A DNA stretch of 5,660 bases from Candidatus Odinarchaeota archaeon (GTDB taxonomy: Archaea > Asgardarchaeota > Odinarchaeia > Odinarchaeales > Odinarchaeaceae). Under the pieces are notes generated by a model. It was not told where the DNA came from, searched no databases, and was given only the letters and a program-made list of their open reading frames with translations. Every line of letters starts with the position of its first letter. The first letter of the stretch is position 1. The stretch spans positions 1-5,660 of the forward strand of contig JAWBON010000075.1 of assembly GCA_038826135.1 (NCBI GenBank), given 5' to 3'. The translations under genes were made by a program, and so were the position numbers. This document shows, piece by piece, positions 213 to 3,110 of the stretch.

Positions 213-373
213 AGTGATAAAACACCTTAACGCTTAGATTTAACATCTTCAATTTTATAGATGGATTATATTAAGTTATTAGTTTTTAAAAAACAGTTAA
301 TTAATAAAAGTATTTCTTAATAAAACTGTATTATAGTTTAAATTGGTGCCGCGATCGGGATTTGAACCCGAGT

Positions 374-393
374 ATCCCAAGAGTTTTACTCTA
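374..393 (-). other. tRNA-Glu intron 2, non-canonical 45/46 (variable region), 20 nt
   Basis: TAGAGTAAAACTCTTGGGAT. 5' bulge AG^T; intron helix AGAGT:ACTCT; central helix CCCA(40-43):TGGG; 3' bulge AT^A. The outer helix is absent (relaxed BHB). Removal restores the 4-nt variable region AGAC. Confidence 0.88.
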
Positions 394-401
394 CTTGGGG
401 G

Positions 402-431
402 TTCTTCTCCAAGCACTACTTGTAATTGGAA
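402..431 (-). other. tRNA-Glu intron 1, canonical 37/38, 30 nt
   Basis: TTCCAATTACAAGTAGTGCTTGGAGAAGAA. Strict BHB: anticodon stem; 3' bulge AA^C; central helix CTTT:GAAG; 5' bulge CG^T; intron helix TCCAA:TTGGA. Confidence 0.93.
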
Positions 432-501
432 CGAAAGCCCCAGATGCTTGGCCGAGCTACACCATCGCGGCGACTAGTGAATTAAAATTATAATATAACA
501 G

Positions 502-2806: not shown

Positions 2807-2814
2807 TTTATATT
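2807..2814 (+). promoter_or_regulatory. Putative TATA box of tRNA-Leu
   Basis: TTTATATT ending 26 nt upstream of the mature tRNA 5' end (2840), typical archaeal spacing, immediately after the longin stop codon. Confidence 0.55.
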
Positions 2815-2872
2815 AGGTTTAGAATCAAAAATATTAAGCGCGGGGGTTCCCGAGCCAGGTCTAAGGGGCAGG

Positions 2873-2899
2873 ATCTTGGCAGATATACCAGGAGGCTTA
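2873..2899 (+). other. tRNA-Leu intron 1, position 30/31, 27 nt
   Basis: Bulge GG^A; intron helix TCTTGG:CCAGGA; central helix GGCA:GGCT (one A-G mismatch); bulge TA^A; outer helix AGG:CTT. A 31/32 register gives the same mature RNA. Confidence 0.85.
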
Positions 2900-2906
2900 A
2901 CTTAGG

Positions 2907-2928
2907 ACCCTGAAGACCCGGGTATGAT
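2907..2928 (+). other. tRNA-Leu intron 2, canonical 37/38, 22 nt
   Basis: Bulge GG^A; intron helix CCC:GGG; central helix CTTA:TATG (one T-T mismatch); bulge AT^A; outer helix is the anticodon stem. Confidence 0.88.
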
Positions 2929-2937
2929 ATCCTGTGC

Positions 2938-2955
2938 AAGGCTAAACCTGCAGAT
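2938..2955 (+). other. tRNA-Leu intron 3, 5' strand of the long variable arm (after T44-G-C), 18 nt
   Basis: Bulge GC^A; intron helix AGG:CCT; central helix CTGT:GCAG (4 bp including one G-U); bulge AT^T; outer pair C40:G2957. Confidence 0.85.
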
Positions 2956-2960
2956 TGTAG

Positions 2961-2987
2961 AGATTAACAGTTTTGTTAATCCAGTAA
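2961..2987 (+). other. tRNA-Leu intron 4, tip of the variable arm (after the GTAG loop), 27 nt; 5' boundary +/-1 nt
   Basis: 8-bp intron helix GATTAACA:TGTTAATC; central helix GCTG:CAGT (after intron 3 removal); 3' bulge AA^A; outer pairs T44:G and G43:C. The 5' bulge is 4 nt (TAG^A), and the boundary was chosen to restore the consensus GTAG loop. Confidence 0.8.
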
Positions 2988-3110
2988 AGCTTCATGGGTT
3001 CAAATCCCATCCCCCGCACCACTTAGTTTGATAAGGTCAATAATTAAATAATTTAGATTACCCGCCTTAACTTAAAATAATAAAAGGCTTAATTATTTTA
3101 ACAGCTTGCT

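Follow-up and report, generated by a model that had tools for sequence, protein, structure and literature searches.

Positions 2840-3021 on the forward strand of the window (the whole 5,660-nt stretch of DNA that was analysed, contig JAWBON010000075.1 of a Candidatus Odinarchaeota archaeon) hold a 182-nt gene with an 88-nt tRNA-Leu(UAG) as its product. The locus starts with GCGGGGGTTCCCGAGCC, a tRNA 5′ end, and finishes with GGGTTCAAATCCCATCCCCCGCACCA, which contains the T arm, the acceptor strand and CCA, and the spacing between the two is far too long for a tRNA. Removal of four inserts, which make up 94 of the 182 nt, leaves 88 nt in five exons (Table 1). This five-exon layout, with internal exons of 7, 9 and 5 nt, had been proposed from the DNA letters alone in the original prediction, and it is confirmed here on both sequence and comparative evidence. 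ARAGORN identifies the 88-nt in-silico product as tRNA-Leu(tag), in agreement with the identity and the length that had been predicted; the cloverleaf is complete, the variable arm is long, and A73 and an encoded CCA are present. The long variable arm and A73, together with the Leu anticodon TAG and G37 (R37), are those of a class II tRNA-Leu, and this class II design is common to the four paralogues and the orthologues of the gene. The variable region of the product is 14 nt long and reads T-GCT-GTAG-AGC-TTC. Upstream of the gene lies a TATA-like sequence that may act as a promoter element; its conservation in three congeners is weak evidence of this, because the whole of this stretch, just downstream of an ORF that ends at 2797, is conserved.

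Table 1. Features of the tRNA-Leu(UAG) locus in the window; P values are from the shuffle test described in the text.
Feature	Positions	Strand	Remark
Putative archaeal TATA box TTTATATTA	2807..2815	+	~29 nt upstream of tRNA position 1; read from sequence
Exon 1, 33 nt: acceptor 5′ strand, D arm, position 26, anticodon-stem 27-30	2840..2872	+	invariant, 4 genomes
Intron 1, 27 nt, position 30/31	2873..2899	+	P = 0.002; absent in sister-family orthologues
Exon 2, 7 nt ACTTAGG: position 31, anticodon loop 32-37, anticodon TAG	2900..2906	+	invariant, 4 genomes
Intron 2, 22 nt, canonical 37/38	2907..2928	+	P = 0.018
Exon 3, 9 nt ATCCTGTGC: position 38, anticodon-stem 3′ strand, variable region nt 1-3	2929..2937	+	invariant, 4 genomes + metagenome variant
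Intron 3, 18 nt, within variable-stem 5′ strand	2938..2955	+	canonical BHB; P = 0.002
Exon 4, 5 nt TGTAG: last nt of variable-stem 5′ strand + GUAG variable loop	2956..2960	+	invariant
Intron 4, 27 nt, after GUAG loop	2961..2987	+	P = 0.0004
Exon 5, 34 nt: variable-stem 3′ strand, T arm, acceptor 3′ strand, discriminator A, CCA 3019-3021	2988..3021	+	invariant

Orthologous Leu(TAG) genes are present in three genomes of a sister family of the same order (G004:C182:8966-9073, G005 and G006), where the gene is 108 nt long and scores 55.1 bits against the Rfam tRNA model. In these genes exons 1-4 are uninterrupted, with exon 2 running contiguously with exons 1 and 3, and both GCAGGACTTAGGATCCTGTGC and GGGGCAGGACTTAGGATCCTGTGCCGTAG are contiguous; exon 1 is identical to that of the sister family at 31 of 33 positions. 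This contiguity means that the junctions of introns 1, 2 and 3 are confirmed by real DNA. The junction-spanning string that the original prediction had offered as a query for spliced reads is found in the in-silico product, and the sister-family orthologues carry its first 21 nt as uninterrupted genomic DNA. Removal of the inserts thus gives a canonical cloverleaf tRNA that matches contiguous orthologues, as is expected of protein-spliced introns. In the sister-family gene the only insert is an intron of 20 nt that follows GTAG and has a strict BHB, made up of the helix CCGT/GCGG and the bulges AG|A and AG|G. The mature sequences of the two families are therefore near-identical and both genes have an intron after the GUAG variable loop, whereas the sister family has one intron with a strict BHB and the present genus has four. 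Since the same site is occupied in the sister family, the intron after the variable loop is the older one, and introns 1-3 were gained on the branch to this genus, because the after-GTAG intron is the only one that the sister family has. The locus thus offers a polarised, clean case of intron gain, from one intron in the sister family to four in this genus. Two pairs of the product differ between the families by two-sided changes: in the variable stem, the T2956-A2988 pair, which spans the exon 4/exon 5 junction, corresponds to C-G in the sister family, and the first T-stem pair is A-T here and G-C there.

Within the genus, the locus was found in three congeneric genomes (1.3-1.4 Mb, one of them closed) at 89-91% identity. 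In an alignment of the four congeners, none of the 88 exon columns varied vs 28 of the 101 intron columns (Fisher P = 5e-9, a value that is overstated because the four genomes are kin). All substitutions and indels, length changes included, fall in the introns, mostly in hairpin loops; intron 1 varies in both sequence and length, and the similarity to the congeners stops directly after the CCA. A fifth variant of Leu(TAG) was found on the metagenome contig Ga0272448_1077559 (L151:1-121); it is a partial copy, truncated where the contig begins. Its exon sequences are identical to those of the present gene, the central helix of its intron 2 (CTTA/TAAG) is fully paired, and the hairpin loop of its intron 4 is larger and different, with a different top pair as well. 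A metagenome scan with the exon 1/intron 1 junction as the query gave no match.

We then considered the splicing motifs of the four introns, using 5000 shuffles per intron with each intron placed in the fully spliced context. A BHB or an accepted relaxed form of it (HBh′, hBH) was found for all four introns, above shuffles. The strict hBHBh′ motif, a fully paired 4-bp helix with two 3-nt bulges, is present in intron 3 and in none of introns 1, 2 and 4. Intron 3 has the helix CTGT/GCAG (4/4 pairs), bulges GC|A and AT|T, the inner stem AGG/CCT and an outer helix of 1 bp; its helix is fully paired and strictly canonical in 4/4 genomes, and its loop differs in sequence and length. Intron 1 has the central helix GGCA/GGCT (3/4 pairs), bulges GG|A and TA|A, a 6-bp inner stem TCTTGG/CCAGGA and a 3-bp outer helix AGG/CTT. 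Intron 2 combines a CTTA/TATG central helix (3/4 pairs, falling to 2/4 in one congener) with bulges GG|A and AT|A and an inner stem CCC/GGG; the anticodon stem serves as its outer helix and becomes continuous only after the excision of intron 1. Intron 4 has the helix GCTG/CAGT (4/4 pairs), a 4-nt 5′ bulge TAG|A, a 3-nt 3′ bulge AA|A, an outer helix of 2 bp and an 8-bp inner stem, GATTAACA/TGTTAATC. The 5′ strand of its helix consists of G2936 and C2937 together with T2956 and G2957; it straddles the exon 3/exon 4 junction, and in 3/4 genomes the helix is whole only after the excision of intron 3. Intron 4 is also unusually conserved for an intron. The description of the four inserts as bounded by BHB-type bulges thus stands strictly for intron 3 and needs to be relaxed for introns 1 and 2 (3/4 pairs) and for intron 4 (4-nt 5′ bulge). 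A broad-specificity EndA does not require a strict BHB (PMC5829648).

The other Leu genes of the genome provide a further comparison. The single intron of Leu(CAG) is a canonical BHB intron at the intron-4 site, and TCCTATGCTGTAG runs uninterrupted in that gene; in Leu(GAG), canonical BHB introns occupy position 37/38 and the intron-3 site; and Leu(UAA) has canonical BHB introns at 30/31 (GGCG/CGCC) and after GTAG. The 88-nt register was chosen because the GTAG variable loop is present in every Leu gene examined, paralogues and orthologues alike. An 89-nt product, which was our first boundary choice, was dropped in favour of this register after the comparison with paralogues and orthologues. 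Intron 4 may nevertheless be cut at its 5′ end 1 nt away from the position given here (TA|GA or TAG|A).

The genomes of the genus, including the closed genome G002, each contain exactly five Leu-type genes (TAG, CAG, GAG, TAA and CAA), indicating that Leu(TAG) is single-copy; a search for another Leu(TAG) gene, as had been recommended with the original prediction, accordingly found none among the five. In long ORFs, CTA occurs at 14.9 per 1000 codons and accounts for 14% of Leu codons, and under standard wobble rules CUA is read by no other Leu tRNA. The gene is thus the sole reader of a common codon, even though more than half of it is intron. A BLAST search of the genome with the four introns gave only chance-level matches elsewhere, so there is no sign of recent transposition.

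Standard tools deal poorly with this locus. ARAGORN in its default mode makes no call; with introns allowed, it mis-calls an Ile(gat) with a 328-nt intron when given the whole contig, and when given the excerpt it reports Leu(tag), but with one intron of 81 nt and an incorrect product of 101 nt. The Rfam tRNA model has no match at the locus and matches only the other tRNA of the window, and the sole Rfam match at the locus is of the exon 5 T arm to the tmRNA model, sub-threshold at 13.6 bits against a gathering score of 47. The expectation that standard tRNA finders would miss or mis-call the gene thus proved right for two tools, ARAGORN and the Rfam tRNA model. Since these finders miss or mis-call Leu(UAG), annotations of Odinarchaeia may lack an essential tRNA. 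Incomplete tRNA sets have been noted in the Asgard genomes in which EndA was studied (PMC5829648).

The rejection of the locus by standard finders and the relaxed form of three of its four motifs are what one might expect of a decaying pseudogene or an unused relic. However, all 88 exon positions are invariant while introns and flanks diverge, compensatory changes keep the stems of the Leu(UAG) product, and no other Leu(TAG) gene is available to read the common CUA codons, even in the closed genome. Decay or disuse is therefore highly improbable, and the gene is almost certainly functional. A different parse, with another anticodon or other exon boundaries, also has to be considered, since a permissive BHB definition yields 96 candidate introns within the 182 nt. 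With so many candidates, motif-only solvers are ambiguous or wrong; one solution, for instance, has AAC as its anticodon and a variable region of 18 nt, and another reads TAG but has five inserts. Such alternatives clash with the contiguous orthologue sequence GCAGGACTTAGGATCCTGTGCCGTAG and with the GTAG loop common to all Leu genes, and they put variable columns inside exons, which makes it extremely improbable that any of them is correct. Because a loose BHB search allows other parses, our parse rests on the comparative data and not on the motif alone, and motif-only solver parses were rejected as a basis for the exon boundaries.

The fourth insert needs more discussion. One alternative is that only three inserts are spliced and that insert 4 is retained as an extension of the variable arm or is removed by a non-standard cut rule. 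The 4-nt 5′ bulge, which deprives it of a strict BHB, would be in keeping with this, as would the 8-bp hairpin and loop, which are near-invariant in the four genomes, unlike introns 1-3. Nonetheless, in the sister-family orthologues and two of the paralogues this site is occupied by canonical BHB introns, the motif of insert 4 has a 4-bp helix and a canonical 3′ bulge and exceeds shuffles at P = 0.0004, and the hairpin loop and its top pair do differ in the metagenome variant. Furthermore, a retained insert 4 would mean a variable region of 41 nt, and we know of no tRNA with a variable region of that length. Splicing of three inserts only, or a non-standard rule for the fourth, is thus very unlikely. 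It is likewise unlikely, although conceivable, that insert 4 is not an ordinary intron in a broader sense, such that EndA cuts the 4-nt bulge "one nucleotide before the helix" only after the removal of intron 3, in a strictly recursive manner through the 5-nt exon, or such that the 8-bp hairpin is kept as a variable-arm extension.

We conclude that the locus is very probably a single functional tRNA-Leu(UAG) gene of an Odinarchaeia-type Asgard archaeon, with four introns that would be spliced by proteins. The genome encodes both the endonuclease and the ligase that this would require. Two genes of the EndA family (PF01974) are present, one of which is closest to subunits of crenarchaeal heterotetramers (3P1Z_B and 3AJV_B, for example), while the second is divergent; RtcB is encoded as well (E = 4e-149). 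An (alpha-beta)2 EndA with an L1 loop has been reported for Asgard archaea, including Odinarchaeota LCB_4 (PMC5829648), and the two EndA genes and RtcB found here agree with that report. The gene for the catalytic-type EndA is broken over the contig ends G000:C48:1-420 (-) and G000:C72:2-274 (+), with an overlap of ~42 residues; this is an assembly break and not a split gene. RtcB lies in a 995-aa open frame at G000:C16:2586-5357 (+), and its Pfam match is split into profile residues 1-50 and 49-426, ~1.4 kb apart, an arrangement that suggests an intein.

In the proposed pathway, a 182-nt precursor that includes the CCA would be transcribed from the TATA-like element, the heteromeric EndA would cut it at the four BHB or relaxed motifs, and ligation of the five exons by RtcB would yield the 88-nt tRNA that decodes CUA. 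The order of splicing would be partly fixed by the structure of the precursor. Intron 1 would probably be removed before intron 2, as its removal restores the anticodon stem that serves as the outer helix of intron 2, and intron 3 would probably be removed before intron 4, the central helix of which is completed by the removal of intron 3. A 5-nt exon between two introns of one variable arm would thus be a demanding substrate on which to study both the tolerance of Asgard EndA for relaxed motifs and ordered splicing.

Other tRNA genes of this genome are also heavily interrupted. By a rough length-based count, 36 of the 42 recognisable tRNA genes are interrupted, with an excess of 1583 nt or ~1.7 introns per gene, a density that, on this rough count, is comparable with that of the most intron-rich Thermoproteales; CCA is encoded in nearly all of the tRNA genes. 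The initiator tRNA-Met gene (G000:C25:7153-7342 (+), 190 nt) gives a 78-nt tRNA-Met(cat) on removal of five inserts of 25, 14, 17, 26 and 30 nt, and this product has A1-U72, a GGG/CCC anticodon stem and TACCA as its last exon. The elongator tRNA-Met(CAT) gene (G000:C5:12805-12986 (-), 182 nt) gives a product that ARAGORN calls as tRNA-Met(cat) once four inserts are taken out, one at 30/31, one behind the anticodon loop, one in the variable region and one in the T loop, where the boundary used is off by one nt. In the window itself, an interrupted tRNA-Glu(UUC) gene at 344-471 (-) scores 36.6 bits against the Rfam tRNA model. Its anticodon is followed by an insert of 33 nt, and another insert, of 21 nt, precedes the T arm; the solver split the first of these into two tandem introns of 16 and 14 nt.

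The original prediction had raised the possibility that four introns exceed the known maximum for a tRNA gene, and in this respect it does not hold. Up to three introns in archaeal tRNA genes were given in the tRNAscan-SE 2.0 paper of 2021 (PMC8450103). In Atabeyarchaeia and Freyarchaeia, 92-95% of tRNA genes are interrupted (Valentin-Alvarado et al. 2024, PMC11291895), and Supplementary Data 4 of that study has intron-4 columns with filled rows, for example for Lys(TTT). In a 2026 preprint on Jordiarchaeia and Atabeyarchaeia (bioRxiv 10.64898/2026.10.13.758758), as many as five intervening sequences per Asgard tRNA gene are reported, some of them in the variable arm, and tRNAscan-SE is shown to miss 30% of them; the initiator tRNA gene of the present genome likewise has five. 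The 2024 table covers Atabeyarchaeia and Freyarchaeia only, and Odinarchaeia are absent from the main text of the 2026 preprint, whereas the host here belongs to Odinarchaeia; the nearest public relative of a gene neighbouring the locus is that of Candidatus Odinarchaeota J65_bin.29, at 80% aa identity. This neighbouring gene was used to place the lineage, as an SSU rRNA gene is absent from the assembly. Neither report includes this Leu(UAG) gene or its two variable-arm introns split by a 5-nt exon.

Similarities also exist with the multi-intron tRNAs of the Thermoproteales (Pyrobaculum, Thermofilum and Caldivirga; Sugahara et al. 2008, as cited in PMC8450103 and PMC4090602), which are described there as likewise having introns with BHB or relaxed-BHB motifs outside the canonical site, together with an (alpha-beta)2 EndA and nearby introns that have to be removed in order. 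In the same accounts, however, the maximum reported is three introns in one gene, and the resemblance among intron sequences points to transposition from gene to gene, whereas the Leu(UAG) gene has four introns and no genomic copy of any of them. Compared with the mature design the gene has four inserts, of which the sister-family gene lacks three, and it belongs with the Asgard tRNA genes that have four or more inserts. It is thus a case of extreme tRNA-gene fragmentation of a kind already reported for other Asgard archaea, and it leaves the known intron maximum where it was; what is particular to this gene is the presence of two introns in one variable arm with a 5-nt exon between them, the relaxed motif of intron 4, and the gain from one intron to four.
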